Position numbers and translations under genes: made by a program
Part shown: positions 21,329 through 47,893 of the stretch, piece after piece
Layout of the letters: each line of letters starts with the position of its first letter
Numbering within the stretch: the first letter of the stretch is position 1
Origin: Thermoanaerobaculia bacterium
Lineage (GTDB): Bacteria; Acidobacteriota; Thermoanaerobaculia; UBA5066
Assembly (NCBI GenBank): GCA_963719225.1
Contig: CAVRAY010000001.1
Location: forward strand, 2,272,001-2,336,000
Direction: 5' to 3'
DNA length: 64,000 nt
The notes under the pieces: model-generated
Told to the model about the DNA's origin: nothing
Seen by the model: the letters and a program-made list of their open reading frames with translations, nothing else
Database searches by the model: none

Positions 21329-24159
21329 TACCGCGATCCCGACGGCGCGAGGCGCTTGAGCTCCTGCGCAAAGTCCGAAACGAGGGTCACGTGGTTGGTC
21401 TCGAGCGTGCTCGCGGTCCCCTCCCGCGTCAGGACGAGAAACTTCTGGCCGTCCGGCGAGACGTCCCATCCGGCCGCGATCCGGCTGCCCATGTCGTACG
21501 ACTCGAGCCGGAAGAGCGTCTCCTCCTTCCCGAAGACCGGCGCGCCTCCCTCCGCCGAGACGCGGGTCGCCGCGACCGATCCGTCGCGGCGCAGGAAAAG
21601 CAGGGTCCCGTCGCGGCTCCAGCGCGGGTTCGAGCCCATCTGCTCCGAGACCTGCCATTTCGCGTCGCCGCCCGCGGCGCTCCGGACGAACACGTACCCG
21701 AGGCCTCCGTCGGTGGAGTCGTAGGCGAGCCAGCGACCATCCGGCGAGAAGACCGCGCCGCCCTCGTTCAAGGGACCGGCCACGACGATCGATGGCTCTC
21801 CGTCGGCTTCGCCATTCTTCAGCCGGATCACGCCGACGTCGAGCTGGGTCGCGGGCGTCGTCACCTGGTAGGCGAGCACCCGCCCGTCCGGCGAGAAGCT
21901 CGTCACTCCCAGGGTCCCCGCCGTCTTGAAGAGCAGACGCGGCGACCCCGAGCCGTCGGCCCGCTTCAGATACACGCCGCGGACCGTCGCGGGAGTGCCG
22001 CCCGGGCTCGTGACGAGCCCGAGCGATCGGTCGGACGTGAAGGCGACCTCGCGCCCGTCGGCGCTCCACACGGCCGTCTGACTGTCGCCTTCGAACGTGA
22101 GCTTCGAGAAGGCGTCGCGGGCGACGTCGTAGACCCAGACGTCGCTCTGCGTCCCGCCGCTGATCACGACGGCGGCGCGATTCCCGTCGGGCGCAAAACG
22201 CACGAACGCATAGCCGCGGGCCACGCCTGCCTTCTTCAGGACCGTCCCCTTCCGGTCGACGAGAGCGAGCTTGAAGACGGTTTCGTTCTCTCCCATGCGA
22301 TACGCGCAGGACCCCGAAGCCGACACGTCGATCTGGGCGCTGCCGTCGGAGGGCGCCTCGCCTCCGGTGGACGACATGATCTTCTCGAGGACCGGCACGG
22401 GACGCCCCGAGAGGACGAGCCGGCCCGCGTCGAAGGAGGCGGCGTAGATCGTGCCCTTCCGCGCGAAGAGGACGTGTCCGGACGGCGCCCAGCGCGGATA
22501 CGCTCCTCCCTTGTGGACGAGGGTCCTCTTCCCCGTCGCGAGCTCGACCGCCTCGACGTTCCCCTCGTCGTAGTCGGTGCCCGAGAACTGCGTCGAGAAG
22601 AGGACGGCCTTGCCGCCCGGAAGGGCCGCCGGCCAGCGGTGCGACCGCTCCCGCGCGGCGACGTCCGCCTTCGTCAGGGGCCTGGGCTCGCCGCCGTACG
22701 CCGAGACCTGCGAGAGGCCGCCCGTCGTCTGCGGCGCGAACACGATCGTGTCGTCCGACACCCACGCGCCGCCACGCGGGATGGACACGTCGCAGATCGT
22801 GGCCGGGGCGCCGCCCGAGACCGGCGCCTTGCGCAGCTTGCCGCGGGCGAAAAACCCGATCCACTTCCCGTCGGGCGAGAAGAAAGGGCTCAACGCGCCC
22901 TCCGACTCCGGGACCTCGACGGGAACCAGACGGTCGAGCCGCCTCAGGAAGAGGCGAGCCCGGGAGCCGCGCGTCACGTACGCGAGCAGGGTCCCGTCCG
23001 GCGAGACGACGACGGCGGCGCCCCCGCCGTCCATCAGCTCGTCGGACGAGAGGAGGATCTGGCCGCGTATGGACGGAACGGTTTGCCGGGCGCGAGCGCG
23101 CAGCGCGAGCGCCCCCGCCGCGGCCGCGAACGCGGCCGCAATCACCCAGGGGAGAAAGAGGGAGAGAGAGTTTTTGCTCCCTCTCGCCACTCTCGTCGCA
23201 TCGCGACGACCTACAGTGGGGCTGGGCACTGCGGTCTTTTCTTCGAAGGGTAATTGGCCGGAGGAGCTGGCCGTCGCGGCGAGCTCTTCGAGGTCCAGCC
23301 GCGCGTCTGCGATGTCGTGGAGGCGTTGCTTCGCCTCCCGCCTCAGACACTTTCCAAGCAACTCTCTTATCTTCCGGGGAGTCTTCTCCGGCAGCGCCGT
23401 CCAGTCCGGGTCTTTCGAGAGGATCGAGACGAGCGTGTCGCTGACGGTCTCCCCTTCGAAAGCGCGCTTGCCCGTCAGCATCTCGTAGAGCACGCACCCA
23501 AACGCCCAGACGTCCGTCCTTTTGTCGACCGGTTTCCCCCGCGCCTGCTCGGGCGACATGTACGCTGCCGTGCCCAGAATCATCCCGGCCGCTGTGGCGC
23601 GCGCCGTCAGCGTCGGCGAGTGGGTCACGGAAGGCGCCGAGGCCGCGCCTCCGTCCCCCTCGAAGATCTTCGCGAGGCCGAAGTCGAGAAGCTTCACGCG
23701 CCCGTCGGGCGTCACCTTTACGTTCGCGGGCTTGAGGTCGCGGTGGACGATCCCCTTCTCGTGCGCAGCCTCGAGCGCCTCGGCGATCTGTTTCGCGAAA
23801 GAAAGGGATTCTTCGAGTGGAAGAGGGCCGGACGAGAGGCGCTTCGCGAGGTCCTCCCCCTCGACGAGCTCCATGACGAGGAGGTGGCGCGTCGACGAGG
23901 AAGAAGACGAAGCGGGGATTTCTTCGAATGAATAGATGCCGGCGATGTTGGGATGGTTGAGCGCCGCGAGGAGTCGCGCTTCCCTCTCGAAGCGCTGTCT
24001 CCTCTCTTCACCTTCGAAGAATTCTTCCGGCAGGACCTTTAGGGCGACCTCTCGCGCGAGGCGAGCGTCCCGCGCCCGGTAGACCTCCCCCATTCCTCCC
24101 GCGCCGATCGCGCCGAGAATTTCGTAAGAACCGAGCTTCGCGCCTGTCTCGAGACTCAT
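21328..24159 (-). CDS. K1: Ser/Thr kinase-TM-TolB/PD40-like beta-propeller receptor
   Basis: [27 protein letters not shown] helix, multiple SPDG repeats. Confidence 0.95.
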   Translation of the reverse strand: MSLETGAKLGSYEILGAIGAGGMGEVYRARDARLAREVALKVLPEEFFEGEERRQRFEREARLLAALNHPNIAGIYSFEEIPASSSSSSTRHLLVMELVEGEDLAKRLSSGPLPLEESLSFAKQIAEALEAAHEKGIVHRDLKPANVKVTPDGRVKLLDFGLAKIFEGDGGAASAPSVTHSPTLTARATAAGMILGTAAYMSPEQARGKPVDKRTDVWAFGCVLYEMLTGKRAFEGETVSDTLVSILSKDPDWTALPEKTPRKIRELLGKCLRREAKQRLHDIADARLDLEELAATASSSGQLPFEEKTAVPSPTVGRRDATRVARGSKNSLSLFLPWVIAAAFAAAAGALALRARARQTVPSIRGQILLSSDELMDGGGAAVVVSPDGTLLAYVTRGSRARLFLRRLDRLVPVEVPESEGALSPFFSPDGKWIGFFARGKLRKAPVSGGAPATICDVSIPRGGAWVSDDTIVFAPQTTGGLSQVSAYGGEPRPLTKADVAARERSHRWPAALPGGKAVLFSTQFSGTDYDEGNVEAVELATGKRTLVHKGGAYPRWAPSGHVLFARKGTIYAASFDAGRLVLSGRPVPVLEKIMSSTGGEAPSDGSAQIDVSASGSCAYRMGENETVFKLALVDRKGTVLKKAGVARGYAFVRFAPDGNRAAVVISGGTQSDVWVYDVARDAFSKLTFEGDSQTAVWSADGREVAFTSDRSLGLVTSPGGTPATVRGVYLKRADGSGSPRLLFKTAGTLGVTSFSPDGRVLAYQVTTPATQLDVGVIRLKNGEADGEPSIVVAGPLNEGGAVFSPDGRWLAYDSTDGGLGYVFVRSAAGGDAKWQVSEQMGSNPRWSRDGTLLFLRRDGSVAATRVSAEGGAPVFGKEETLFRLESYDMGSRIAAGWDVSPDGQKFLVLTREGTASTLETNHVTLVSDFAQELKRLAPSGSR
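23090..23254. repeat. 165-bp juxtamembrane+TM cassette (other copies at 25845-26009, 42350-42514, 46824-46988)
   Basis: All four copies run GCGCGAGCGCGCAGCGCGAG...CTTCGAAGGGTAAT and have identical length. Confidence 0.85.
23917..24026. repeat. Intragenic box I/box II inverted motif pair, copy in K1
   Basis: GATTTCTTCGAATG at 23917 and CTCTTCACCTTCGAAGAATTCTT at 24004. Confidence 0.85.
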
Positions 24160-24169: not shown

Positions 24170-26923
24170 CTATCTTCCGATCGCAGGCCAGTTGAGAACG
24201 ACGACGGCGGGCTGATCCTGCCGGTCGTCGGCGGACGCGACGACGAGAAAGCGACTTCCGTCCGGGGCGGGCAGGTACTGGGAACGGCTGTCGGAGATCC
24301 CGTTCTGGGGCACGCGCACCGGGAAGAGAACCTTCGGGACGCCGACCTCGACGTCCCTCTTCAGGGACAGCTCGACTGCCATGAGCTTGCGGTCGCTCGA
24401 TAGGAAATAGAGCTCCCGCCCGTCTGCGCGCCAGAGCGGCTGGTCCCCGCCGTCCTTCGAGATCTGCCATTTCCCCCCCGACGGAGGGAACCTCTGAACG
24501 TACACCTCGGCGCGGCCCGTCTCGTCGGACACATACGCGAAGAACGCGCCGTCGGGCGACGGAGAGGCGTGAGCCGTGAATGCCTGCGGCGTACCGAGGA
24601 GGTGGACCGGCTTGCGCTCTCCGCGGAGCGGCAGCCTCCAGAGGTCGGAGCGGCCGCTTTCGTTCGGGCTTTCGTAAACGAGCCAGGCCCCGTCCGGCGA
24701 GATGAAGTCGCCGTAGTTGTCGAGCGAAGTGCCAAGGACCGGTTCGTCTCCGCCCGAGCCGTCCAGGGGGCGCCTGAAGAGGCCCATGCGCCCCTGACGG
24801 TTCGAGGAGAAATAGAGGAACTTGCCGTCCGGTGACGCCATCCCCGTGTTGTTGGCCTTGGGCCCGAACGTGAGCCGGGTCCACGTGCCGCGCACGAGGT
24901 CGATCTGCCAGAGGTCCGGAAGATCGGTGCGCTTGTCCGTCACGGCGATCCCGAGGCGCTGCGCGCCGAGGAACCAGAACGGTTCGAACATGACGGCGGG
25001 GTCCCCGACCGTCCCGAGGGACTTGCCCGCGCGATCGAACCACGTGAGTCTCTGCCGGGAGCTCGCCCGGCGCCTGTAGACGAGCGTGCCGTCTCCGCCG
25101 GCCGCGAAGGGCGCAAGACCCGTCCAGCCGCTTTCACCCTCGGCGACGATTCCGTCCACGACGAGCCCGGGCTCCCCGGACAGCCGGCGTCGGCCGGCGT
25201 CGAACACCTGCGCATAGAGCGAGCTCTCGCGTACGTAGAGGAGGCGGCCCGCGTCGTAGGCGGCCCATCCTCGCGTCGACACGACGAACGCGTCGTCGGT
25301 CGAGTCGAGGGAGGCGACGCGGATGCCGGTCCGAGCCGAGTCGTCGCTCAGGCAGAGGTAGAGGAAGTGGGATCCGTCCGGCAGCACCCTCGGCCAGCGG
25401 TGGGTGTAGTCCTTCGGGCCGAACGTCGTCGCCGGAACGGGGACTCCGCCCATCGCGCTGACCCGGTGGAGCGCGGTGCGGATCCCGGTGGAGAAGACGA
25501 TGACGCCTCGAGGGAGCCACGTTCCGCCGCGCCCATCCGTGACCGGGCAGATCGTCTGGGTCGGTCCCCCAGCCGCGCTCACGCGCGCGAGACGGTCGCC
25601 CGTGAAGAAGGCAATCGCGGTTCCGTCCGGGGACCAGAACGGGAACCGCGCGCCCTCGGTCTCGGCGAGAACCTGGGCGCCGATGGAGTCGAACGAGCGG
25701 ACGTAGAGCCGCTCGACGTCTTTCTCGTCCGACGCGACGAAAACGAGCCGGCGCCCGTCCGGCGAGACCGCCATCGAGTTGCCGAAGGACGTTCCCTCGG
25801 GAACCCGGACCTCGAACTGGACGGCTGGCGCGTCCCGCCGCGGGGCGCGAGCGCGCAGCGCGAGCGCCCCCGCCGCGGCCGCGCACGCTGCCGCAATCGC
25901 CCAGGGGAGAAAGAGGGAGAGAGAGTTCTTGCTCCCTCTCTCTCGACTCGCAGAAGCGCTTCGACCTACAGTGGGGCTCGGCGCCGCGGTCTTTTCTTCG
26001 AAGGGTAATAAGGGAGACGAGCTCCCGGCGCCGGCTGCGCCCAATTCCTCGAGGTCGAGGCGTGCGTCGGCGATGTCGTGCAGTCTCAGCCGTGCATCGC
26101 GCTGCAAGCACCTTCCAAGGATCTTTCTTATCGCCGCCGGCGTCTGCGCCGGCAGCGCCGCATAGTCGGGCTCTTTCGTGAGGATCGCCGCGAGCACGTC
26201 CGTCACAGTCTCCCCCTCGAAGGCGCGCTTGCCCGTCAGCATCTCGTAGAGCACGCAACCGAAGGCCCAGATGTCCGTCCGCTTGTCGAGCGCCTTACCC
26301 CGCGCCTGCTCGGGCGACATGTACGCGGCCGTCCCGAGGATCACGCCCGCCGCCGTGGCACGCGCCGTCATTGTCGGCGAGTGCGTGATGGACGGTGCGG
26401 AGCCAGGGACGGAATCCCCCTCGAGGATCTTCGCGAGGCCGAAGTCGAGGAGCTTGACCCGCCCGTCGGGCGTCAGCTTGACGTTCGCCGGCTTGAGGTC
26501 GCGGTGGACGATCCCCTTCTCGTGCGCCGTCTCCAGCGCCTCGGCGATCTGCTTCGCGTAGGAAAGAGACTCTTCGAGTGGAAGAGGGCCGGAGGAAATC
26601 CTCTGTGCGAGGTCCTCTCCCTCGACGAGCTCCATGACGAGGAGGTGACGAGTCGCAGGAGAAGAAGAAGACGAAGAGGGGATTTCTTCGAATGAGTAGA
26701 TCGCGGCAATTCCAGGATGGTTCAGCGCCGCGAGGAGCCGCGCTTCCCTCTCGAAACGCTGCCTCCTCTCTTCACCTTCAAAGAATTCTTCCGGCAGGAC
26801 CTTGATGGCGACCTCTCTCGCGAGGCGAGGGTCCCGCGCCCGGTACACCTCTCCCATCCCGCCCGCGCCGAGGGGCGAGAGCATCTCGTAGGGGCCGAGC
26901 TTCGTGCCGGGAGCGACCGTCAC
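24170..26923 (-). CDS. K2: Ser/Thr kinase-TM-beta-propeller receptor
   Basis: Same kinase motifs, TM and WSPDG/SPDG repeats. 917 aa. Confidence 0.95.
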   Translation of the reverse strand: MTVAPGTKLGPYEMLSPLGAGGMGEVYRARDPRLAREVAIKVLPEEFFEGEERRQRFEREARLLAALNHPGIAAIYSFEEIPSSSSSSPATRHLLVMELVEGEDLAQRISSGPLPLEESLSYAKQIAEALETAHEKGIVHRDLKPANVKLTPDGRVKLLDFGLAKILEGDSVPGSAPSITHSPTMTARATAAGVILGTAAYMSPEQARGKALDKRTDIWAFGCVLYEMLTGKRAFEGETVTDVLAAILTKEPDYAALPAQTPAAIRKILGRCLQRDARLRLHDIADARLDLEELGAAGAGSSSPLLPFEEKTAAPSPTVGRSASASRERGSKNSLSLFLPWAIAAACAAAAGALALRARAPRRDAPAVQFEVRVPEGTSFGNSMAVSPDGRRLVFVASDEKDVERLYVRSFDSIGAQVLAETEGARFPFWSPDGTAIAFFTGDRLARVSAAGGPTQTICPVTDGRGGTWLPRGVIVFSTGIRTALHRVSAMGGVPVPATTFGPKDYTHRWPRVLPDGSHFLYLCLSDDSARTGIRVASLDSTDDAFVVSTRGWAAYDAGRLLYVRESSLYAQVFDAGRRRLSGEPGLVVDGIVAEGESGWTGLAPFAAGGDGTLVYRRRASSRQRLTWFDRAGKSLGTVGDPAVMFEPFWFLGAQRLGIAVTDKRTDLPDLWQIDLVRGTWTRLTFGPKANNTGMASPDGKFLYFSSNRQGRMGLFRRPLDGSGGDEPVLGTSLDNYGDFISPDGAWLVYESPNESGRSDLWRLPLRGERKPVHLLGTPQAFTAHASPSPDGAFFAYVSDETGRAEVYVQRFPPSGGKWQISKDGGDQPLWRADGRELYFLSSDRKLMAVELSLKRDVEVGVPKVLFPVRVPQNGISDSRSQYLPAPDGSRFLVVASADDRQDQPAVVVLNWPAIGR
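26681..26790. repeat. Box I/box II pair, copy in K2
   Basis: GATTTCTTCGAATG at 26681 and CTCTTCACCTTCAAAGAATTCTT at 26768. Confidence 0.85.
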
Positions 26924-26924: not shown

Positions 26925-29582
26925 TCACCGTCCCAGGTCCGCGTACCAATTCAGGACGACCGTCGTCGGCGTCATCGCGTCGCGCCCCAGCGGGGCCACC
27001 GTGAGGAAACGCTTCCCGTCGGCGGTCACGAGAAAGCGGTTGCGAGCGACTCCCGAGTCGAAACGACCCTGGAAGAGCGCGTGCGGGGTTCCGGCCGTGA
27101 TGCCGCTTCCGGTCTGAATGTCGACCGCCATGAGTTTCTGATCGAGCGTTCGGTAGTACAGCTCCTTGCCGTCGACGCGCCACTGCGGCTCTCGGCCGCC
27201 CGCGGTGGAGATCTGCCACTTGCCTCCGGGGCCGGGGAAGCTCTGGACGTAGACCTCCACGCGTCCCGACTCGTTCGACTGATACGCCAGAAAACGGCCG
27301 TCCGGCGAGAACACGGCCATCAGCTCGGCAAACGGGGTCTTCAGGAACGGGACGGGCTTGCGCTCGCCGGACATGGGCATGACCCAGATGTCCCAGTTCG
27401 TGTCCTTGCCGAGACTCGAGAAGGCGAGCATTTTCCCGTCGCGACTCCAGTCGCATGCGAACTTCGTCTCGTCCGACTTGAAGATCAGCTTCTCCTCTCC
27501 CTGGCCCTCGACGGCCTTCTCGAAGAGGTCGTCGCCCACGGCGAACACCATGCGGCGGCCGTCGGGAGACCACAGGGGAACGGTCGCAGCGCCGGCGCCG
27601 AACGTGAAGCGGGAGCTGACGCCGCGCTTCAGGTCCCGGACCCAGACGTCGGTCTTGCCGCTCCGCGGATCCGCGAGATCGAACGCGAGGCGATCGTAGC
27701 CCGGGGCGAACGCCGGATTGCGGTAGTCGCCCGGGTCGCCGACCGCTTCGCCCTCCTTGCCCGAGCGGTCCACCCAGACGAGCCTGTCCCCGCGCTCACC
27801 CGTGCGATACGCGAGGGCCCCGTCGCGCGAGACCGAGAAGAGAGCGAGGCCGACGCTGTCCGTGCCGATGTGCTCGGCAAGCGGAATCGGCTCGCCCGTC
27901 GTCTTCATGGCTTTCGCGTCAAACGGCTGGGCGACGAGCGTCCGGTCGCGCACGAAGAGGAGATAGCCGGGCGGCGCATACGTGACGAGCGTCTGTGCGG
28001 GCGCGAGGAGCTTCGTCTCCGCCGAGTCGAGCGTCCCGATCCGGTAAGCGCTGTCCTCCGCCTTCTGCCCGATCGCCATGTAGAGGAAGTGCCGGCCGTC
28101 CGGAAGGAACTCAGGCCAGCCGACCTGCCCCTCCTTGCGCGAAGCGTCAGGCTTTGCGGCGACGACGAGTGTTCCCCCCGCGGCCGAGACGCGGTTGATC
28201 GGCTGCGTGCCCGTGCCGTCGAAGAGAATGACACCCTCGGAGCTCCAGGATCCGTCGGCGCCTCCCGGCGCGTCGCAGATCTTCTGCGGCGGGCCGCCCG
28301 AGACCTCGACCTTCTTGAGCTTGCCCTCCGCGAAGAACCCGAGGAACCGGCTGTCGGGCGACCAGAAAGGCCGCGTCGTGTCCTCCGTGCCGGGGAGAGG
28401 TTGCGCGGCGAGAGCGTTGAGCGGCCGGATCCAGATGCGGCTCTTGCCGGACGCGTCGGTCGCGTTGAACGCGAGGTACCGCCCGTCCGGAGAGAGACGG
28501 GGCGCGTCGATCGTCGTGAGCCCCTCCGGGTTCGCGATCTCGAACCGGACCAGCTTCGGGCGGGCGGGGGCGCGCCGGACGAAGCCCACGGCCAGGGCCG
28601 CCGCCGCGAGGGCGGCAGCCGCCGCGAGAGCCCACGCGAGCCGTTCGCGGCTCTTCCTTCTGTGGGCGACGGGGGCCGGCAGCCCGACCTGCGATCCTCC
28701 CTCCGCGATCCACTGGAGCTGCAGCTTGATGTCGTGAGCCGTCTGGAAGCGGTCCTCGGGATCCTTCGCGAGACAGGTCTTCACGACACGGTCCAGCGCC
28801 GGGGGCGTCATCGGGGCGATCGTCGAGACAGGAGCGGGCTCGTCCTTGAGGATTGCCGAGATCAGGGCGGCGTGACTCTTTCCCTCGAAGGCCTTCCGGC
28901 CCGTCGCCATCTCGTAGATCACGGCGCCGAACGAGAAGATGTCGCTTCGCGCGTCGGATTCCTTGCCCTCGAGCTGCTCCGGCGCCATGTACTGGAACGT
29001 CCCGAGGATCGTGCCCTGCTGCGTGATCGAGCGCGGCATCTCGGTTGGCAGCGACGTGGCCGAGGACGAAGACTTCACGGGCGCCGCCGCCGTCTTCGCG
29101 AGGCCGAAGTCGAGAAGCTTCACCCCGGACTTCGTCAGCATGATGTTCCCCGGCTTCAAGTCGCGGTGGATGATGCCGGCGTGGTGAGCCGCGTCGAGCG
29201 CGCCCGCGATCTCGACCGAGATCTTCAGGAGCTGCTCGGGCTCGAGCGGGCCGCGCAGGAGCCGCTCGGCGATCGTCTCACCCGCGAGGAGCTCCATGAC
29301 GAGTAGATGGCGGGAGGACGAAGAAGGAGAGGAAGAGGGGATTTCTTCGAATGAATAGAGGGTGGCGATCCCGGGATGGTTCAGGCTCGCGAGCAGCCTG
29401 GCTTCCCGCTCGAAGCGGGCCTTGTTCTCTTCACCTTCTAAGAAATCTTGCGGCAGTACCTTCACCGCAACGTCGCGTCCGAGGCGGGAGTCCCTGGCCT
29501 TATAAACCTCTCCCATCCCTCCGGCGCCGAGCGACGAGAGGATTTCGTAAGACCCGAGCCTGTTGCCGGGAGAAAGTGTCAT
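26925..29582 (-). CDS. K3: Ser/Thr kinase-TM-beta-propeller receptor (885 aa)
   Basis: Likely start [10 protein letters not shown] at 29582 (ATGA overlap). [21 protein letters not shown]. Confidence 0.95.
29340..29449. repeat. Box I/box II pair, copy in K3
   Basis: GATTTCTTCGAATG at 29340 and CTCTTCACCTTCTAAGAAATCTT at 29427. Confidence 0.85.
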
Positions 29583-32161
29583 CGAGCCCCCTCCACAAGA
29601 AAAAGATGGGATGACATGCGGCGGCATGCGTACGCGTAGCTCTTGAGGTCGCCGCTGAAGACGAACGGCCCGACGTCCAGGACTCCAGTCAGGTCGGCGG
29701 GGCCGAGCGTGCGCATCGGTTCGCGCCGGCCCGTTGCGATCTCGAGCCTCTCGATGCGGGCGGGAACCTCCCCGCTGCGCGAGACGAGCATCGAACGGCC
29801 GTCTGGGCTCCACCGGATGACCTTGTCTTCGGGAGTCGCGCCCGCGACGGGCCGAGGCTCGCCTCCGTCGACTGGATAGAGGACGAGAGCGCCGCCGCTC
29901 GCCTTCACGAGGAGCAGCTGGCCGTCCGGCGACACGAACCCCTGGCTCGTTCCCTCCGGCGTCACGGGGCGGGGCTTGCCCGCTGCGACGTCCTGCACGA
30001 AGCACCGGACGGCCTTTCCCTCCTGGTGGCCGCAAACGACGATCCTCTTCCCGTCCGGGAAGAACTGCGCCCACTCGTAGCCGACGAGTCCTCCCCGCTC
30101 GAACTTGAGAGGCTCGCCAGCGCCGGTGGGATAGAGCACGAGCTGAGGGGGCGTCGTGAAAATGACGGCGAGCGCCCACTTCCCGTCACGGGACAGGTCG
30201 TTCGCGGCGCCTTCCCCGAGGCGGACGACCGGCGACCCGTCCGTCTGGCGCAGGCACACCGCGTAGTTCACGCCGACGCTCCCGCTCTCTTCCGAAAAGA
30301 GGAGCGTCCTGCCGTCTGAACTCAGAGCCGACGGGTCGGACAGGTCCAGCCACGAGAGGTCGCGCTCCCGAGTCTGGCCCGGCGCGAGGACCGGCATCTC
30401 GCGGAAGAAATCGTCCCGCGTCGTGAGCCAGCGCCCGTCCGACCGGACGTCGTGGATCGTGAGGCCTCCGGCGCTCTCGAGCGCGACTCGCCGCGTGCCC
30501 GCGAGGGTGACTCCGTAGACGCGGAAGTTGTTGTAGGCGTTTCCCGCGGAGAACATGACCTCGTCTCCCGACGGGGACCAGGCCAGTCCCTCCTCGCCCC
30601 AGTAGCCTTCCGAGAGGATCGTCTTCTTCCCGGCGAGGTCCACGACGACGACTTCTCCGCGGTCGTCGAACCGGAACGGATGCTGGAAGAAAGCGATCCG
30701 GTCCCCGCGCGGAGAGAACCGGGGATTGCTGAAGTAGCCGCCCGTCTCGGCGAGGACCTTGCCGGTCGGGTACTCCAGACGGTCCTTGCCCCCGAAGTCC
30801 CGGATCAACGCCAGGTTCGCGCCGTCGGGGGACCAGTCGGCCTCGCGCACACCGTCGAGGACGTCCCTCGGCGCGCCGCCCTCCAGCGGCATCCGCGCGA
30901 GGGTGCCTTCATAGAGGCTGTGACCCTTGTACCGGACGCGGGTGAGCACCGCCAGCTCTCCCTTCGATGAAATCGAAAGCAGGTGTCCGGCGAGCAGGGA
31001 GCGCGGGCTCGCGCCCGGGTAGTCCGCTCGAAGCGAGAAGATCTCCGGCGTGTTCCCGGACGGGGCCGCGCTATAGACGACCGTCTTTCCGTCCGGGGCG
31101 AGCCGGGCGTTGAAGATCGGCTCCTGCCGAAACGTGAGCTGCGCGAAGGACGGGACGGCGACGATCGAGCGCTTTCCCTTCCACAGCCCGACGCCAAACG
31201 ACGCCGCGGCAGCGAGGACGCCGACTGCAATCGCGGCGGCGGGAACCCAGCGACGGACGCTCCGCGTCGACGCAAGCGCGGCGGCCCGGCCGGACGCGGA
31301 GCTCCCGCCCAGCGCTTCGAGGTCGTACGCGAGGTCGCGAGCCGACTGGAACCGTTCCGCCGGGTTCTTCTCGAGGCAATGCCGGACGAGTCGGTCGAGC
31401 TCGGGCGGGATTTTCGCGCCCGAGACGTCCGGGTCGGGCGGCTCCTCCTTGAGGATCGCGTTCATCGTCTCGATCGCCGAGTCGCCCTTGAACGCGCGCC
31501 GGCCCGTCAGCATCTCGAAAAGGACGCAGCCGAACGCGAAGATGTCCGACCGGGCGTCGGCCGGCAGCCCTCTCACCTGCTCGGGCGCCATGTACCCGAC
31601 GGTCCCGAGGAGCGTCCCGGGATCCGTGGCCTTCGCGAGCGTCGGCGAGTTCGTGTCCTCGCCGGCCGTGACCGCGCGTTGCTTCGCGAGACCGAAGTCC
31701 AGGATCTTCGCGCGTCCGTCCTTCGTGAGGACGACGTTTTCGGGCTTGAGGTCCCTGTGAACGATTCCGCTCTCATGCGCCGCCGCGAGGCCGCGCGCGA
31801 TCTGCGCTCCGAGCTCCACGGCCTTGCGCAGAGGCAGGGCCCCCGCGGTGATCCGCTCGCGGAGCGTCTCCCCGTCCACGAGCTCCATCACGAGGAGGTG
31901 CCGGGGAGGAGAACCGGGGATTTCTTCGATTGAATAGATCGCCGCAATGTTCGGATGGTTCAGTGCCGCGACCAGCTTCGCTTCTCGCTCGAAGCGCGCC
32001 CGGCGCTCTTCACCTTCTAAGAAATCTTCCGGCAGCACTTTGACTGCGACGTCCCTCGCCAACCTCAGGTCCCTCCCTCGGTAGACCTCTCCCATCCCTC
32101 CCGCCCCGAGCGGCGAAACGATTTCGTACGCTCCCAGTTTCATTCCGGCGGCGAGCGTCAT
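29579..32161 (-). CDS. K4: Ser/Thr kinase-TM-beta-propeller receptor (second ectodomain class)
   Basis: [11 protein letters not shown]. Ectodomain begins F.QLTFRQ..IFNAR.APDG. Confidence 0.95.
31919..32028. repeat. Box I/box II pair, copy in K4
   Basis: GATTTCTTCGATTG at 31919 and CTCTTCACCTTCTAAGAAATCTT at 32006. Confidence 0.85.
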
Positions 32162-40067: not shown

Positions 40068-40666
40068 GGTTCCTCCTCGATCACGATCTCATCCCCGTCC
40101 ATCGACCTGATCCTGACGAGTGCCTCGACGGGTACGCCCAGGGATGCGACCGCATCGCGGCCACCCTCGAACGCCTTCTCGATGAGCGCGCCGACGCCGA
40201 CGATGCGCGCCCCGGCAGCGCCCGCGAGGCGGGCGAGGCCGAGGATCGTCGCGCCGGACGCGAGGAAGTCGTCCACGATGAGGACGCGCTCGGCGGCACC
40301 GAGGTACTCGGGTGAAACGATGAGCTCCACCGTGCGCCCCTTCGTGTGCGATGGCGCCAGGGTCAGGAAGACCTGGTCGGGCATCGTGATCGGCTTGCTC
40401 TTGCGGGCATAGACGACCGGGATCCCGAGGTGGAGGGCCGTGGCGACCGCGGGGGCGATGCCCGAAATCTCGGCGGTGAGCACCTTCGTCGCGCCCTCCG
40501 GCGCGAAGCGCCGGGCCAGCTCCTTCCCGCAGGTGTCCATGAGACGGGGATCCACCTGGTGGTTGATAAAGCCGTCCACCTTCAGGATCCCGCCACCGAG
40601 GTTGCAGCCGTCGCGCCGGATCCGGTCTGCGAGGAGCGCGTGCGCGCCCGTGGCGATCGGACTCAT
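40064..40666 (-). CDS. xpt: Xanthine phosphoribosyltransferase
   Basis: ILKVDGFINHQVDP.LM, VLTAEISGIAPA, PRPP-binding VLIVDDFLASG, IEKAFEGGR. 200 aa with RTGA overlaps at both ends. Confidence 0.93.
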   Translation of the reverse strand: MSPIATGAHALLADRIRRDGCNLGGGILKVDGFINHQVDPRLMDTCGKELARRFAPEGATKVLTAEISGIAPAVATALHLGIPVVYARKSKPITMPDQVFLTLAPSHTKGRTVELIVSPEYLGAAERVLIVDDFLASGATILGLARLAGAAGARIVGVGALIEKAFEGGRDAVASLGVPVEALVRIRSMDGDEIVIEEEP

Positions 40667-43431
40667 TTCCTGCCGCTCCGCTCCGCCGGCCAGTTCACGA
40701 CGAGGTCGAGCAGGGCATTGGGCTTCTGGCCCTCGCCGACGACGAGGAGGCGCTCGTGGTCGGCCGTCGGGGAGAAGCCCGGCGCCGCCGGGCTCGGGCC
40801 GGGGGCGCGCATGAGGGGCCGGCTCGCACCGACCTCGAGGCTCTCCCCCCGCGACTCGACGCTCACCGCCCGGACGATTCCGGACGTGTCGTGATACAGG
40901 ATTTCCTTGCCGTCGGCGCTCCAGAACGCGTACGCGCCCCCTTCGGTCGAGATCTGCCACTTCCGGCCGGCGCGCGGGAAGGAAGTGGCGTACACCTCCC
41001 AGCGGCCGGACTCGTCGGAGCTGTAGGGTAGCCACTTCCCGTCGGGCGAAAGCGGCGAGGCGACGAGGCTCGCTTTCGACTTGAGGACGACCTCCTGCGC
41101 GTGCGTGGCGTCGAGCGCGAGCGTCCGGATTTCCGCGCCCGGCGCATCGCCCCACTGGACGAACACGATCTTGCCTCCGTCCGGCGTCCAGGCCGACGCC
41201 TCCTTGTCGATGTCCGAGACGAGAAGGGGCTCCTCGTCTCCGGTGCCGTCGAGCGACTTGCGAAAGAGGTCCTCGTGGCCCTTTCGGACCGAGGAAAAGA
41301 CGATGGACCGCCCGTCCGGGGACCAGAGCGGCGACCGGTCGTTCGCGGGGTCGAACGTGAAGCGCGTCCTCACGCCGCGCGCCACGTCCACGATCCAGAT
41401 GTCGTAGGTGGACGTCGCGGCATCGAGGGCCGTCACGGCCGCGAGCTTGCCGTCGGGCGAAAGCACGGCGCCCTGATACTCGCCGGCCTCGCCAACGTAC
41501 TCGGCCGCCTTGCCATCGCGGGTGAACCACCGGAGCCGCGACGCGAGGTCCCCGCGCGCTCCCTGCGTCACGAGAACGCCGTTCTGCGACGCCGAGAAGC
41601 AGGCGATCGCCGTCTGGACCGACGGCATCACGATGCGGTCCACGAGAGGAGACGCCTCGCCCGTGAAAGTTCCATTCGCGTCGATCGGGCGCGCCATCAG
41701 CGTCGCGTCGCGCAGGTAGAGGAGATGGCCCGAGGCGAACTGGGGTGCGGCCGGAGAGCGCAGGAGGACCTTCTCGGCCCCCCCGTCGAGAGACGCGAGG
41801 ACGATCGGGAACCCTTCCGCGGCGGACGCCGCCGAGCGCGCAACGTAGAGGAACCGCTTCCCGTCGGGCAGGAACCGCGGGTGGCGGTGTGAGTTGTCGC
41901 CGCGCTTGAAGTCGATCTTCGTGACTTCGACCGAGTCCCCACCCTTTTCGGAGACCTTGAAGATCGATGTGTTCGCCGAGGGCGCGAAGAGGACGACGCC
42001 CACGGGGCTCCAGGCGCCACCCTTTCCTTCGGGCGCCGGGCAGAGCGTCAGCACCGACCCGTCCGCGACGCCGATCGTCTTCAGCTTCCCGGGCACGAAA
42101 AAGCCCAACGAGCGGCTGTCAGGCGACCAGAACGGGTACTGCGCGCCCTCGGTGTTCGGAAGCACCCGCGCTTCGGCGGCGTCCAGCGGGCGGACGTAGA
42201 GGTTCACCTTCCCGACGCCGTCCGCCGCCGAGAACGCGACGGATTTCCCGTCCGGCGAGACGATGGCCGGGCCAGGGGTGTTGGACTCGAGCCAGAAGCT
42301 CGTGCCCTCCGGAGGCGAGATTCGCGCGCGAACGACCGGCGCCCCCGGGGCGCGAGCGCGCAGCGCGAGTGCCCCAGCCGCGGCCGCGAACGCGGCCGCA
42401 ATCGCCCAGGGGAGAAAGAGGGAGAAAGACTTTTTGTTCCCTCGCTCCAGTCTCGTCCGTTCTGTGCTTGCTACAGCGGGGCTGGGCAACGCGGTCTTTT
42501 CTTCGAAGGGTAATGAGGAAGACGAGGTCGCCGCGCCGGCTGCGCTCAATTCCTCGAGGTCCAGCCTCGCATCGGCGATGTCGTGGAGGCGCTGCTTCGC
42601 GTCCCGCCTCAGGCACTTTCTGAGAATCTCCTTGACCTTCTCCGGTGTTCCCACCGGCAGCGCCTCCCAGTCCGGCTCACCTCTCAGGATCGCCGCGAGC
42701 GTGTCGGAGACGGTCTCGCCTTCGAAAGCGCGCTTGCCCGCGAGCATCTCGTAGAGAACGCAACCGAACGCCCAGACGTCCGTCCGCTTGTCGACCGTCT
42801 TTCCCCGCGCCTGCTCGGGGCTCATGTACGCCGCCGTCCCGAGGATCACGCCCGCCGCCGTCGCGCGCGCCGTCAGCGTCGGCGAATGCGTGACGCCCGC
42901 ACCCGACCCCGCGACCGAATCCCCCTCGAACATCTTCGCGAGGCCGAAGTCCAGGAGCTTCACGCGGCCCTCGGGCGTGACCTTCACGTTCGCGGGTTTC
43001 AGGTCCCGATGCACGATCGCCTTCTCGTGCGCGGACTCCAGCGCCTCGGCGATCTGACGGGCATATGAAAGAGATTCTTCGAGGGAAAGAGGGCCCGACG
43101 CGAGGCGCATTGCGAGGTCTTCTCCCTCGACCAGCTCCATCACGAGGAGATGCCGGGTCGACGGAGAGGAAGAGGAGGAAGAAGAGGGGATTTCTTCGAA
43201 TGCGTAAAGAACGGCGATTCCGGGATGATTCAGGCTCGCGAGCATCCGAGCTTCGCGCTCGAACCTCTGCCGCCTCTCTTCACCTTCGAAGAATTCTTCC
43301 GGCAAGACCTTCAGTGCCACCGCCCGATCGATGCGAACGTCCTTCGCCCGATAGACCTCTCCCATCCCTCCCGCGCCCAAGGGGTCGGTGATCTCGTAAG
43401 AGCCGAGCCTCGTCCCCGTCGCGAACGTCAC
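40663..43431 (-). CDS. K8: Ser/Thr kinase-TM-beta-propeller receptor (922 aa)
   Basis: GTG start (TFATGTRLG) at 43431. HRDLKPAN, DFG, SPDG repeats. Confidence 0.95.
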   Translation of the reverse strand: MTFATGTRLGSYEITDPLGAGGMGEVYRAKDVRIDRAVALKVLPEEFFEGEERRQRFEREARMLASLNHPGIAVLYAFEEIPSSSSSSSPSTRHLLVMELVEGEDLAMRLASGPLSLEESLSYARQIAEALESAHEKAIVHRDLKPANVKVTPEGRVKLLDFGLAKMFEGDSVAGSGAGVTHSPTLTARATAAGVILGTAAYMSPEQARGKTVDKRTDVWAFGCVLYEMLAGKRAFEGETVSDTLAAILRGEPDWEALPVGTPEKVKEILRKCLRRDAKQRLHDIADARLDLEELSAAGAATSSSSLPFEEKTALPSPAVASTERTRLERGNKKSFSLFLPWAIAAAFAAAAGALALRARAPGAPVVRARISPPEGTSFWLESNTPGPAIVSPDGKSVAFSAADGVGKVNLYVRPLDAAEARVLPNTEGAQYPFWSPDSRSLGFFVPGKLKTIGVADGSVLTLCPAPEGKGGAWSPVGVVLFAPSANTSIFKVSEKGGDSVEVTKIDFKRGDNSHRHPRFLPDGKRFLYVARSAASAAEGFPIVLASLDGGAEKVLLRSPAAPQFASGHLLYLRDATLMARPIDANGTFTGEASPLVDRIVMPSVQTAIACFSASQNGVLVTQGARGDLASRLRWFTRDGKAAEYVGEAGEYQGAVLSPDGKLAAVTALDAATSTYDIWIVDVARGVRTRFTFDPANDRSPLWSPDGRSIVFSSVRKGHEDLFRKSLDGTGDEEPLLVSDIDKEASAWTPDGGKIVFVQWGDAPGAEIRTLALDATHAQEVVLKSKASLVASPLSPDGKWLPYSSDESGRWEVYATSFPRAGRKWQISTEGGAYAFWSADGKEILYHDTSGIVRAVSVESRGESLEVGASRPLMRAPGPSPAAPGFSPTADHERLLVVGEGQKPNALLDLVVNWPAERSGRK
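43189..43298. repeat. Box I/box II pair, copy in K8
   Basis: GATTTCTTCGAATG at 43189 and CTCTTCACCTTCGAAGAATTCTT at 43276. Confidence 0.85.
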
Positions 43432-45086
43432 TTCGCGTCGTCCTTCAGCCCCAGCATCTCCCACCGCTGGAGGGAGAGCGGGACGTTCCCATTCTTGTAG
43501 ACGAAGTCGTGGAACGCGCGCAGCCGGAACGAGTCGCCCTGCGCCTTCTTCGCTTCGGCGAGGAGCCGCAAAACCTGGAGCTTCCCGATCTGGTACGTGA
43601 TCGCCTGTCCGGGCGACGACGCGAACGCCGCCGCCTCGGCTCGCGCGGTTTCGGCATCCATCGGGACTGCGGTCCTGAGGTACTCGGCCGCTTGTGGGAT
43701 CGTGAACGTCCCGAGCGCGAGCCTGACGTCCACCTCGACGCGCAGAGCCCTCAGGCGCATGTAGTTCGCGACCATCTCGCGTGTCTTCGGCGCGTCCGCG
43801 TAGAGGCCGGTCGAGAGGAGCAGCTCCTCGGAGTAGAACGCGAGGCCCTCGATCGGGCCGGAGTCGTAGAACGCTCGGCGGATCTCGTCCTCGTGCCGCG
43901 ACGCGAGCGCGAGCTGGAACGCGTGCCCCGGGATCCCCTCGTGCGACATGTGCGGACGCCGGTCCTTCGCCATCGAACCCGCGAAGTAGCCGAGCTTCGC
44001 GGACGGCTTCGGGATCCAGCGGATCGAGGGCTCGCCCGGCCGCGCCGTGTTCGCGAAAAGAGTCCACTCGCCGAAGCCGTCCAGCGCCTCGAGGTACGGC
44101 GGCACGGGCAGGTCGACGTAGCGCGGAAGGTCTGCGGGCACGCTCGCGATCCCCTTCTCCTCGAGGAACCGCCGGATCTCGGCCTCGGCGCGTGCCGTCA
44201 TCGCCGACTGGGCGGCCTGGTTCGGGACCATCGCGAGCTCGGGCGCGCCCGTGTTGCGCTGGCGCTCGTAGACCTCGAGCGCAACGGAGCGGTCGTACTC
44301 CTGCCGGCCCATGAGGAGCAGCTCCTCCGGCGTGAACGGTACGAGAGCGACCTCGCGGAGGAAGAAGAGATAGCCGTCGCGGCCGACCGGCTTCCGGTCC
44401 GACAGCAGCGGCAGACGGGCCTCGAGCCAGACCCTGAAGGACTCCAGCGCCGCGATCGCGCTTTCCGTTGCCGGGCCGACGCGCGCGCGCGCGTCCGGAG
44501 CGAGAAATGGGGAGAGCGCCGCCATGGACGCCTTCAGCTTCAAGCCGATCCTCTGCAGATCCTCGATCGCGAGCTTCGTGAACGGCGCGGCGGCTTCGTG
44601 GAGCATGGCTTGCGCCTGATCCAGCGTGCGCGGGATCGACTCCAGCCGCACCGCGAGGTCCGTGCTGCGCGCCTCGTCGAAGGGTGGCGGCGACAGCATC
44701 GCGTCCACGAGAACCGGCAGCGTCTGGTCCACCCAGAACGTCGGGTCGCGCCGCCACGAGCGCTTGACGTCCAGCTCCCAGCGCACGCGCGCGAGAGCCG
44801 AGCCGATCAGGCGCCGATCCACTTGCCACGGGACCGGACGCGACGGATCGGCGAGCGCCTTCAGGCGTTCCTCGAAGAGGACGAGCGTCCGGCGCCGGGT
44901 CTCGATGGAGTCCGCCGACCAGTCGGGCGCCCAGCCGTGCGGCCGGACGACTCGCGCCACGTCGTCGCGGTCCATCGGCTTCGTGACCGCGCGCCAGGAC
45001 CAGAAGTCGCGGGAAAGCGTCAGGAGGTCGTCGGCCGCGGCCGGGCACGCGAAGGACAGCACGAGTGCGATCGCGACGGATCTCAT
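43428..45086 (-). CDS. Exported DUF885 family protein
   Basis: Signal peptide MRSVAIALVLSFACPAAA, HEGIPGH.FQL, EG.AFYSEE, PGQAITYQIGK, LR.FHD. Confidence 0.85.
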   Translation of the reverse strand: MRSVAIALVLSFACPAAADDLLTLSRDFWSWRAVTKPMDRDDVARVVRPHGWAPDWSADSIETRRRTLVLFEERLKALADPSRPVPWQVDRRLIGSALARVRWELDVKRSWRRDPTFWVDQTLPVLVDAMLSPPPFDEARSTDLAVRLESIPRTLDQAQAMLHEAAAPFTKLAIEDLQRIGLKLKASMAALSPFLAPDARARVGPATESAIAALESFRVWLEARLPLLSDRKPVGRDGYLFFLREVALVPFTPEELLLMGRQEYDRSVALEVYERQRNTGAPELAMVPNQAAQSAMTARAEAEIRRFLEEKGIASVPADLPRYVDLPVPPYLEALDGFGEWTLFANTARPGEPSIRWIPKPSAKLGYFAGSMAKDRRPHMSHEGIPGHAFQLALASRHEDEIRRAFYDSGPIEGLAFYSEELLLSTGLYADAPKTREMVANYMRLRALRVEVDVRLALGTFTIPQAAEYLRTAVPMDAETARAEAAAFASSPGQAITYQIGKLQVLRLLAEAKKAQGDSFRLRAFHDFVYKNGNVPLSLQRWEMLGLKDDAK

Positions 45087-47893
45087 TTCGTCTTCACCGT
45101 CACGGCCCAGTTCTGGACGAGGGTCAGCGGCGTCGAGGCCTTCTCGGTGACGACCGCGTTCACGATGAACTTCTGCCCGTCCGGGAACGGGTCGTACTGG
45201 GGGATGTTCGTCCGCCGACTCTGCAGCGTGAACAGCTCGTGCGGCGTGCCTTTCTCGAACGCCGCTCCGGTCTTCACACTCACCGAGGTGAGGCGGAATC
45301 CTTCCGCGAGGTAGAAGAGCTCGCGTCCGTCGCGGCTCCACCTCGGCTGGGAGCCTCCTCCCGCGGAGATTTGCCATTTCCCCCCGGCGCCGCTCGACGG
45401 CCGGACGTAGACCTCCTGCCTCCCGGTCTCGTTGGACATGTACGCGACCCAGAGACCGTCTCGGGAGAAGGCCGCGTCGCGTTCCGAAGCCGGCGTGCGC
45501 AGGAACTCGCGAGCCTTGCCGTCGGCGGCGGAGAGCAGCCAGATGTCGTCCGCCATCTCCGCCGTCGAGCCGTTGTAGACGATGAACCGTCCGTCGGGAG
45601 TCCAGTCCGTCAGAAACTTGGATCCGGGGGAAAGGAAGGCGTCCGCCGGCGAGGAGACGGGCGCCGAACCTGTCGGCGCCGCCCGGGCGACGATCCGCTC
45701 CTCGTCGCCGCCCACGAGGGTCTTCTCGAAGATGAACCACAGGCCCTTCCGGAAGGAGCCGAACGCAAAGCGCCTCCCGTCCGGAGAGAAAACGGGCGTG
45801 TAGTCGTCACCGGGATCGAACGTCCGTCGTACTGGTTGCTCCGCACCGACCGCGTCGAACGTCCAGATGTCGCGATTGCTGCTCACGGGGTCGATCAATT
45901 CCGTGACGACGAGCCTTCCATCCGGCGACACGCGCGGAGTCCAGTAGTTCCCGACGTCTCCCAGCGTGCGAAGGACCTTTCCGGCGCGGTCGTAAACCGC
46001 AAGTCGGGAGTTTCCGATCGTCCCCCCCGCGGCGTAGGCGAGGAGGCCTCCCGCGGAGGCGGTGAAGATGCCGGTTCCGCCGTCCGCGAGGTACTGGACG
46101 CGCGGCACCAGGACGATCGGATCGCCGGTCGTCTCGAGCCGGCCGGCGTCGAACGCCTGCGCCATGAGACTCCCGTTCCACGAATAGAGGAGGTGGCCGG
46201 GGACGTAGATCGCGCGGGTCGCGGCCCTGACGAGCAACTTCCTTTCCTTGTGGCCGACGGCCTGGACATAGAGCTCGCTCTCGTTCCGCCGCGTCTCCCG
46301 GTCGACGCGCTGGACGATGTAGAGAAAATGCACCCCGTCCGGAAGAAACTGCGGCCACTGGTGGGAGCTCTCTCCACGCGTCTCGTCCACCGTCGTGACC
46401 TGCACGCGCTCTTTTCGTCCCGGCATGATTCTGAAGATCGCGTTGAGCAGCGCCGGCGAATAAAGGATCGTGCCGTCCGGGCCCCACGCGGCTCCGCGGC
46501 CGGGACCGCTCGCCGCGATGAACTCGACCGCGCCGCCCGAAGAGGGAATGGCCGCGAGGCCCGTCGCCTGGCCCATGAAGCCGATCATCCGGCCGTCCGA
46601 TGACCAGAACACGTTCCGCACGGCCTCCGTGCCGGGAAGCAGAAGCGACTCGCCGGACGCGAGGGACCTCACGCAAAGCTGGTTCTTCTTTCCGTCCGTG
46701 ACGAGGAACGCGAGCCGCGAGCCGTCCGGCGAGAGGACGGGGGGACCGCCGAGAAGGTCGAATGTCCAGCCTTCCGGCGGCAGGAGCGACGCCGTCAGGC
46801 TCGACGCCGCCGGCGACTGCGGGGCGCGAGCGCGCAGCGCGAGCGCCCCCGCCGCGGCCGCGCACGCGGCCGCAATCGCCCAGGGCAGAAAGATAGAGAG
46901 AGAGGTTTTGCTCCTCCTCTCACGACTCGCTCGTTCCGCGCTTGCTACAGTGGGGCTGGGCACGGCTGCATTTGCTTCGAAGGGTAATTGGCCGGATATG
47001 CCAGCCGTCGCGGCCGTCTCCTCCTCGAGGGCGATGCGCGCGTCCCCGATGTCCCGCAGGCGCTGCTTGGCGTCGCGCTGAAGGCACCTGCGCAGCAGCT
47101 CTTTCACCTTCGAGGAAATCGGCGCGCGAAGCGCGCTCCAGTCCGGCTCTTTCATGAGGATCGCCGCCAGCGTGTCGCTCACGGTCTCCCCTTCGAAGGC
47201 CCTCTTCCCGGTCAGCATCTCGAAGAACACACACCCGAACGCCCAGACGTCCGTCCGCTTGTCGACGGGCTTTCCGCGCGCCTGCTCGGGACTCATGTAC
47301 GCCGCCGTCCCCAGGATCACCCCCGCCGCCGTCGCCCGCGCCGTGAGTGTCGGCGAGTGCGTCACGCCCGCGGAGGACGCGGAGGTTCCGTCCCCTTCGA
47401 AGATCTTCGCGAGACCGAAGTCCAGGAGCTTCACGCGCCCTTCGGGTGTGACCTTCACGTTCGCGGGTTTCAGGTCCCGGTGCACGATTCCCTTCTCGTG
47501 CGCGGCCTCCAGCGCCTCGGCGATCTGCTTCGCAAGAGAAAGCGATTCTTCGAGTGGAAGAGGGCCCGACGCGAGGCGCACCGCGAGATCTTCCCCCTCG
47601 ACCAGCTCCATGACGAGGAGATGGCGGGACGATGAAGAAGAGGAAGAGGGGATTTCTTCGAATGAGTAGATCGACGCGATCCCCGGATGATTCAGGCTCG
47701 CCAGGGCGCGCGCTTCCCTTTCGAAACGCGTCCTTCTCTCTTCACCTTCAAAGAATTCTTCCGGCAAGACCTTGACCGCGACATCACGATTGAGGCGAGG
47801 GTCCTTCGCCCGATAGACCTCTCCCATTCCCCCAGCACCGAGAGGCGCAAGAATTTCGTACGGTCCGAGTCGGACGCCAGAAGCAATCGTCAC
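45083..47893 (-). CDS. K9: Ser/Thr kinase-TM-beta-propeller receptor, first gene of the array
   Basis: Kinase motifs, TM and SPDG repeats. 936 aa. Confidence 0.95.
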   Translation of the reverse strand: MTIASGVRLGPYEILAPLGAGGMGEVYRAKDPRLNRDVAVKVLPEEFFEGEERRTRFEREARALASLNHPGIASIYSFEEIPSSSSSSSRHLLVMELVEGEDLAVRLASGPLPLEESLSLAKQIAEALEAAHEKGIVHRDLKPANVKVTPEGRVKLLDFGLAKIFEGDGTSASSAGVTHSPTLTARATAAGVILGTAAYMSPEQARGKPVDKRTDVWAFGCVFFEMLTGKRAFEGETVSDTLAAILMKEPDWSALRAPISSKVKELLRRCLQRDAKQRLRDIGDARIALEEETAATAGISGQLPFEANAAVPSPTVASAERASRERRSKTSLSIFLPWAIAAACAAAAGALALRARAPQSPAASSLTASLLPPEGWTFDLLGGPPVLSPDGSRLAFLVTDGKKNQLCVRSLASGESLLLPGTEAVRNVFWSSDGRMIGFMGQATGLAAIPSSGGAVEFIAASGPGRGAAWGPDGTILYSPALLNAIFRIMPGRKERVQVTTVDETRGESSHQWPQFLPDGVHFLYIVQRVDRETRRNESELYVQAVGHKERKLLVRAATRAIYVPGHLLYSWNGSLMAQAFDAGRLETTGDPIVLVPRVQYLADGGTGIFTASAGGLLAYAAGGTIGNSRLAVYDRAGKVLRTLGDVGNYWTPRVSPDGRLVVTELIDPVSSNRDIWTFDAVGAEQPVRRTFDPGDDYTPVFSPDGRRFAFGSFRKGLWFIFEKTLVGGDEERIVARAAPTGSAPVSSPADAFLSPGSKFLTDWTPDGRFIVYNGSTAEMADDIWLLSAADGKAREFLRTPASERDAAFSRDGLWVAYMSNETGRQEVYVRPSSGAGGKWQISAGGGSQPRWSRDGRELFYLAEGFRLTSVSVKTGAAFEKGTPHELFTLQSRRTNIPQYDPFPDGQKFIVNAVVTEKASTPLTLVQNWAVTVKTK
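47651..47760. repeat. Box I/box II pair, copy in K9
   Basis: GATTTCTTCGAATG at 47651 and CTCTTCACCTTCAAAGAATTCTT at 47738. Confidence 0.85.

Follow-up and report, generated by a model that had tools for sequence, protein, structure and literature searches.

Facing boxes in a kinase array and across the genome

The 64,000-nucleotide stretch of DNA analysed here (the window; GenBank assembly GCA_963719225.1, contig CAVRAY010000001.1, positions 2,272,001 to 2,336,000), from a soil-type Thermoanaerobaculia bacterium of the Acidobacteriota, carries nine tandem kinase-PD40 genes on its minus strand, each with two short AT-rich boxes in the part encoding the kinase N-lobe. A preliminary description of the window had placed box I at one coordinate in every gene and box II at a constant distance from it, and the analysis agreed, with box I at all nine coordinates and the start of box II at +87 nt in 9/9 genes. 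The two boxes are one motif on opposite strands and, when read in one orientation, are the identical word. This motif recurs throughout the source genome (G000, with contigs C1 and C2), where it is under selection, specific to a lineage, graded in density towards the replication terminus and arranged in facing pairs.

Codons within the boxes are held at rare synonymous choices, as had been claimed for GAA, TCA and GGT. Across the nine kinases, the five in-box glutamate columns use GAA (8/8, 9/9, 9/9, 9/9 and 9/9), the in-box serine codon is TCA in 8/8 (1.8% of serine codons genome-wide, codon usage being taken from our own gene caller) and the in-box glycine codon is GGT in 7/9 (6% of glycine codons genome-wide); most synonymous sites flanking the boxes vary freely. 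Between the boxes, skew also occurs at E74 (GAA in 9/9) and H83 (CAT in 8/9). The preliminary description had held that a DNA-level signal would be refuted if the genome wrote such peptides with the same codons elsewhere; FEE is encoded by TTCGAAGAA in 10/277 cases outside motif sites versus 45/49 inside them, the latter figure being partly circular. The fixation of rare codons in the boxes, together with this contrast, indicates that the signal acts at the DNA level. The kinase gene at 5834-8338, already described as lacking the boxes, has no box pair and a single 10-bit match at 8190, while the proposed alternation of mismatched positions between the boxes tracks the peptide variants EEFF and EDFL, with both positions mismatched in four genes.

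A matrix grown from the boxes (consensus roughly RRR(A/T)TTTCTT(A/C/T)GAA(G/A/T)G(G/T)GAA, with a purine-rich flank) matched 778 sites at >=18 bits in G000, versus about 10 in an order-4 Markov simulation. The boxes are real in all nine kinases. They are not specific to kinases. A nucleotide-level signal laid over coding sequence, as first proposed, stands, but not its reading as a feature of the kinase array, where only 9 of about 300 pairs lie; an element confined to kinases was rejected on the same count. Predicted coding sequences hold 452 of the 778 sites (237 sense, 215 antisense) and the remaining 326 lie in intergenic DNA, which makes up 12% of the genome and in which sites are about 5x denser. 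Motif sites cover 0.4% of the genome and contain 56 of its 239 TTA codons, and the peptides that they write include FLEGEE, LLRRK, PSKKSSSS and FEEIP. A DNA signal thus shapes protein sequence, and FLEGEE, PSKKSSSS and FEEIP with poly-serine would otherwise be taken for protein features.

Among 271 neighbours that face each other (+/-), 241 are no more than 300 bp apart, versus 8 among 271 that face away (-/+), and the 296 unpaired sites have a weaker facing partner (>=10 bits) at 122 and a diverging one at 10. Nearly half of the facing pairs (114/241) lie inside one gene, in all three reading frames. The same geometry holds in other genomes, with 46 facing versus 3 diverging pairs in G013 and 71 versus 2 in G006 (460 kb each), and 58 versus 1 among the 80 GTDB loci listed. 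Centre spacing in 264 de-duplicated pairs rises steeply at 65-70 bp, peaks at 70-79 bp, shows a bump at 130-139 bp and tails to about 290 bp; the preferred range is 70-89 bp, and the array kinases stand at 93 bp. An apparent 60-bp period (global p=0.005 versus a log-normal null) came down mainly to a sharp peak near 76 and the bump near 136, and as this bump shows up weakly when only non-homologous pairs from G013 and G006 are counted, quantised spacing is not claimed. The DNA inside pairs is GC-rich (0.72) and its structure does not exceed that of matched controls from intergenic (68) and coding (86) DNA, and neither flanks nor interiors carry a 10-11 bp bendability signal. A mobile element with a conserved interior was also rejected, as 306 pairs gave 264 interior clusters, with clustering only among paralogs and low-complexity flanks.

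Within the kinase family, the pair is present in 15 of 63 paralogs, nine in the array and six elsewhere, and a sixteenth paralog near the origin has a degenerate version. Box II substitutes kinase residues without an indel, and a single origin by substitution, in the common ancestor of the 15-member subfamily, is likely for the kinase pair. The poly-serine insert after FEEIP reads as the purine flank of the motif in reverse complement, and its expansion likely took place in a loop that tolerates it. Twelve further motif copies (13-22 bits) occur within four of the nine array kinases (Table 1). The paralogs are mosaic; between kinases 5 and 7, for instance, identity is 88-94% as far as box I and drops to about 60-70% beyond it. 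The array is interrupted by a phosphoribosyltransferase gene (window 40064-40666) and a DUF885 gene (43428-45086), with 4-nt overlaps with their neighbours, and a DUF3516 DEAD helicase gene (window 18737-21328) follows the last kinase.

Table 1 Motif copies, facing pairs and host genes in the kinase array (window positions)
Feature	Position	Strand	Detail
Box I, motif copy in kinase 1	23917..23930	+	28 bits
Box II, motif copy in kinase 1 facing box I	24004..24026	-	30 bits
Convergent pair, kinase 2	26681..26790	.	centre spacing 93 bp
Convergent pair, kinase 3	29340..29449	.	
Convergent pair, kinase 4	31919..32028	.	
Convergent pair, kinase 5	34511..34620	.	
Convergent pair, kinase 6	37219..37328	.	
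Convergent pair, kinase 7	39825..39934	.	
Convergent pair, kinase 8	43189..43298	.	
Convergent pair, kinase 9	47651..47760	.	
Weaker second convergent pair, kinase 1	23230..23370	.	centres 23243+/23356-
Second pair, kinase 2	25985..26130	.	centres 25998+/26117-
Second pair, kinase 8	42490..42635	.	centres 42503+/42622-
Second pair, kinase 9	46965..47125	.	centres 46977+/47113-
Additional copy in the same direction, lying some 110 bp outside box I	23800..23825	+	others at 26574, 43079, 47550; makes a ++- array
Host gene, kinase 1	21328..24159	-	Ser/Thr kinase with PD40 propeller, 943 aa
Host gene, kinase 2	24170..26923	-	
Host gene, kinase 3	26925..29582	-	
Host gene, kinase 4	29579..32161	-	
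Host gene, kinase 5	32300..34753	-	
Host gene, kinase 6	34750..37461	-	
Host gene, kinase 7	37458..40067	-	
Host gene, kinase 8	40663..43431	-	
Host gene, kinase 9	45083..47893	-	

Chromosomal gradient and taxonomic range

In G000, dnaA, parAB and parS lie at C2:326-335 kb (the canonical parS, separate from the motif, at C2:333827) and a canonical dif site lies at C1:2037568, about 250 kb from the window. Close to dif there are 27-30 sites per 100 kb, and around the origin this density has fallen to 6-8. Densities per 100 kb at dif and origin are 28.5 and 6.9 in G000, 23.5 and 4.2 in G013, 31.7 and 2.5 in G020 and 5.5 and 0.6 in G174 (the last three measured on stretches of 60-200 kb), a 4-13-fold ratio in 4/4 genomes versus 0.9-1.4 for seven control words. 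The gradient is seen within each codon-score quartile of G000, the score itself being lowered by motif sites, and in intergenic DNA, where density drops from 11 to 1-5 per 10 kb from dif to origin. It extends over the whole chromosome with no bounded domain and has no replichore strand bias, either for all sites (383 versus 395) or for unpaired ones (142 versus 154). Two pairs bracket dif in G000, and a site lies <=200 bp from dif in 6/8 genomes of the genus examined and likewise in G174. Several dif-like sites occur in some genomes (four in G213, two in G082), suggesting Xer-integrated elements. Regions that look recently acquired hold few motif sites. The end of contig 2 (C2:780000-871796) has zero sites, a lower GC content and alphaproteobacterial-looking flagellar/chemotaxis-like genes, and possibly belongs to the 6% contamination of the assembly.

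Taxonomically, all of the at least 80 GTDB matches listed for a 23-mer of the motif were titled Thermoanaerobaculia or Acidobacteriota. An exact 11-mer occurs in 51-341 copies in 26/26 other genomes of the genus and in 1-45 copies in 7/7 genomes of a related genus, versus 0-2 copies in the 26 remaining genomes of the family (a reversed 11-mer as control gave up to 19), and in a class-wide draw of 251 genomes the 236 outside the genus and G174 hold 0-1 copies of a 16-mer (this tally and that of the second ParB below include the unpublished G025, on which no claim rests). The codon position of sites is kept in within-genus orthologs at 70-90% identity and, between the two genera, site positions are also kept in alr, rnr, alaS and lysS, names assigned by recognising the sequences. 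G174 has the same kinase pair at a spacing of 93 bp, and in G082 the orthologous sites have largely decayed. As these kin are not independent, the pattern is counted as one origin with expansion in one lineage. De novo searches of 200 kb each of G028 and G082 returned no analogous paired motif. The outgroup G033 (C1:880-1080 kb) has hairpins of another kind, about 20 per 200 kb, with complementary interiors and arms of tandem 7-8-mers (CAGGTTT-like and ATCGGGTG-like). Literature searches, whose coverage mostly excluded subscription papers, returned no description of the motif and an exact 12-mer once each in two unrelated human studies; the system is apparently undescribed so far.

A putative terminus-organising protein and its rivals

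The motif pairs may be sites for a putative lineage-specific DNA-binding protein that organises the terminus, the reading that we favour and regard as evenly balanced between right and wrong. Each copy would comprise a pseudo-palindromic core, TTTC-NNN-GAAR, to which the purine flanks lend a direction. On double-stranded DNA, a protein unit would sit on each of the two facing sites, and the two units together would clamp the intervening GC-rich stretch or draw it into a loop, working best at 70-90 bp; as the spacing lacks helical phasing, the link between the units would be flexible. Micro-loops of this kind, in their hundreds, could serve to mark or compact the late-replicating half of the chromosome around the terminus, or to tether it, a role comparable to that of MatP/matS or ZapT. 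For bacteria that lack MatP, the organisation and tethering of the terminus half is an open question across most of the phyla, and ZapT, which is the alternative studied best, was without a consensus site. Here, the defined sequence, geometry and gradient, and the pattern of presence and absence (one genus rich in the motif, a related one that has lost it by degrees and relatives without it), should make the protein findable by phylogenetic profiling or by one pull-down.

Several observations weigh against such a protein. Spacing shows none of the 10.5-bp helical phasing that a rigid short loop would predict (Rayleigh p=0.99), and G017 and G024 have no motif site near dif. The wide range of copy number within the genus (51-341 exact copies), together with the decay in G082, implies that the system is dispensable in some relatives. 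No binder was identified, in a search that compared candidates over fetched stretches and was far from exhaustive. MatP (PF06303) was found in 0/5 genomes at E<=0.1, with the E. coli positive control matched, and the only ZapT-like MerR protein does not track the motif, since it also occurs in motif-less relatives with its recognition helix nearly unchanged. Lastly, across 140 strong pairs the mean arm pairing probability is 0.63 versus 0.58 in score-matched swaps (p=0.05), and G-T mismatches in the arms favour the lagging template by 810:684 (54:46, p=0.001), with random pseudo-pairs at 50.6%.

These last values, like the missing helical phasing, would be accounted for if facing copies fold together whenever the lagging template is briefly left single-stranded, forming a hairpin with a long, unstructured loop, similar to attC or primosome-assembly hairpins, that a protein would read as a replication, restart or processing signal; we consider this unlikely, though deserving of real weight. 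The stem between box I and box II, noted in the preliminary description, has a predicted pairing probability of 0.75-0.99 as DNA and 0.92-0.98 as RNA in fragments cut tightly round the boxes, and when 12-nt flanks are included the coding strand, as DNA, takes this stem as its fold of lowest energy in 6/9 kinases. However, no position-wise covariation appeared in 241 pairs, arms are as alike between pairs as within them (0.673 versus 0.672) and the duplex energies of partners equal those of score-matched swaps (-13.75 versus -13.63, p=0.96). An arm-swap result of p=0.0005 was discarded because unmatched swaps were biased by weak-weak combinations, and shrank to the borderline value above when score-matched. 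An equal strand bias (54%) is present in the inner flank outside the stem and the leading strand is enriched in G-rich words, which the G-T preference may simply reflect. Moreover, pairs that face away could fold into a hairpin just as well as those that face each other, yet only the latter occur, no attC R-boxes stand beside the arms, the integron of G000 has its own ordinary attC-type site and no Y1 transposase (PF01797) was found in G000, which is 97% complete and was the only genome of the genus searched. Conservation of sequence rather than structure favours a protein that reads duplex DNA. Of the three options raised in the preliminary description, the best fit is a protein-binding site; a hairpin could physically form but lacks clear covariation, and recombination is weakly supported.

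Three further explanations are less probable. Biased uptake and recombination could have built up the motif as a DNA uptake, drive or similar self-recognition sequence whose receptor prefers two facing sites, which we hold to be improbable. Like uptake sequences (PMC2817400), it has hundreds of lineage-specific copies written over proteins in every frame and in either orientation, ComEC is present and regions that look recently acquired are poor in sites; yet uptake sequences are more evenly spread than random (PMC2817400), at odds with the 4-13-fold gradient, and their dyad pairs are intergenic, whereas many motif pairs lie inside one gene. ComEC was moreover rejected as a candidate because it occurs in 15/15 genomes, motif-less ones included. 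Recombination or gene conversion, which in the tandem array would shuffle N-lobes among paralogs, is a distinctly remote prospect. Breakpoint mapping did place the deepest genealogical break at box I, where the left/right correlation, calculated on 16 kinases, is at its lowest (-0.05 to 0.07), and codons 78-82 hold 4/24 significant pairwise breakpoints. Other breaks lie outside box I, with mosaicism domain-wide and 10/24 breakpoints at codons 151-163. The motif core resembles an 11-bp tyrosine-recombinase arm (the left arm of B. subtilis dif), which was counted in favour of this explanation, but the dif arms of G000 differ from the motif, the window contains no recombinase, most pairs lie in single-copy genes, where recombining would be destructive, and the integron integrase was not found in 5/17 motif-rich genomes while being present in motif-less ones. 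Joints in sequencing runs were uninformative because the six DNA runs shared <10% of words and their contigs were mostly kinases of other organisms. Last in our ranking, and hardly to be expected, is action in RNA (mRNA stems or sites for RNA-binding proteins) or a regulatory role in which the pairs would be promoters or operators shared by a regulon of very large size. This would suit the high RNA pairing of the kinase stems, the denser intergenic sites and the frequent start of intergenic pairs 20-40 nt past a stop codon, but sense and antisense copies in genes are equally common, G-U versus A-C mismatches on the mRNA strand are near-symmetric (176:176 in intergenic DNA, 291:250 in genes), no Rfam match was found and a gradient linked to dif is unexpected for a transcript signal.

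The search for the putative binding protein also covered other candidates. The ZapT-like MerR protein (C1:2377015-2377557) is single-copy, conserved across the order and adjoins der and rnr rather than ihfA; its helix-turn-helix is invariant in 16/16 aligned genomes of the two motif genera. A second ParB beside dif was rejected, as it is found in 19/19 genomes searched across the order with a similar helix-turn-helix and no motif near the outgroup copies. Its parA-parB operon (C1:2037865-2039524) ends about 270 bp from dif in G000, dif lies inside the fetched flank at 16 of those 19 loci and the recognition helix is unlike that of the origin ParB; a terminus partition system is possible. The integron integrase IntI was rejected, being found in 12/17 other motif-rich genomes and also in 10/12 genomes outside the two motif genera. 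In G000 it is chromosomal (C1:1113546-1117484), with at least one ordinary attC-type site, several insertion sequence genes downstream and cassettes apparently on the 3' side of intI. The distribution of ParC does not follow the motif either. A second GyrA/ParC-family gene (C1:1029222-1031546) is present in 12/12 genomes of the same family and 0/3 in neighbouring families, with no parE seen alongside. Histones (PF00808, PF09123) and a shared palindrome near dif were not found, inspection by eye of HU/IHF genes, small basic proteins and the genes around ori, parC and xerD gave no candidate, and neither did synteny screens over fetched stretches of 200-460 kb per genome.

Comparison with known repeat and architecture systems

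Among known systems, DNA uptake sequences and uptake signal sequences are, like the motif, non-palindromic and specific to a lineage, with copies in the hundreds whose presence alters peptides and codon choice in several frames and in either orientation. They are evenly spread, with pairing mainly between genes (PMC2817400), whereas the motif is terminus-biased, failed a test of even spread and forms pairs at 40-290 bp inside genes. Similarly, repetitive extragenic palindromes and the bacterial interspersed mosaic elements that they build have two inverted copies with a variable linker between them (PMC3333891). The motif pairs resemble these in their inverted copies and variable linker, but have no GTAG, no Y1 transposase was found in G000, they are not only intergenic (452/778 sites in coding sequence) and the kinase interiors are native coding sequence.

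Integron attC sites have R boxes flanking L boxes and arms that covary. The motif pairs are like them in having inverted arms, a variable interior of similar length and a possible single-strand fold, and unlike them in conserving sequence rather than structure, with no covariation (one borderline p=0.05), no R''/R' boxes, GA-rich outer flanks without conserved TAAC/GTT and an IntI that does not track the motif. FtsK-orienting polar sequences (KOPS), Chi and architecture-imparting sequences (AIMS) are genome-wide words, some denser towards the terminus, that are strand-biased by replichore; the motif is also a genome-wide word denser towards the terminus, but one without replichore strand bias. 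It resembles the half-sites of Noc and parS, and differs from sites of these ParB-type proteins in that no ParB-like protein tracks it in distribution or helix-turn-helix.

The closest parallels are with systems of the terminus. ZapT, from the ZapT-ZauP-ZapA linkage of the Caulobacter terminus, binds with a terminus bias and mostly within open reading frames, at 10 chromatin immunoprecipitation peaks that have no consensus motif (PMC7188993). A MerR_1 protein of similar layout is present here and ZapA occurs in 5/5 genomes; unlike ZapT, this MerR_1 gene has no HU/IHF gene within its fetched flank (up to 1.5 kb) at 30/30 loci, ihfA not being adjacent. As with matS, the motif is a short repeated site with a terminus bias, protein binding here being inferred. 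The matS site is 13 bp long with 23 copies in 800 kb (PMC3330122) and bridging between matS sites is reportedly infrequent (10.1101/755397), whereas the motif has 778 asymmetric sites, mostly in facing pairs, with a gradient over the whole chromosome and no MatP in the five genomes searched. By analogy, the motif would work like matS and ZapT sites while belonging to neither by the features that define them. Tentatively, and with somewhat less confidence than in the binding protein itself, it may represent a new class of chromosome-architecture element, in which hundreds of facing pairs with a favoured span of 70-90 bp form duplex micro-loops or lagging-strand hairpins and are read by a protein family unrelated to MatP, ZapT, ParB and Noc. 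Such a system would date back to the shared ancestor of the two Acidobacteria genera, would have expanded in one of them and would have been strong enough to rewrite core proteins.

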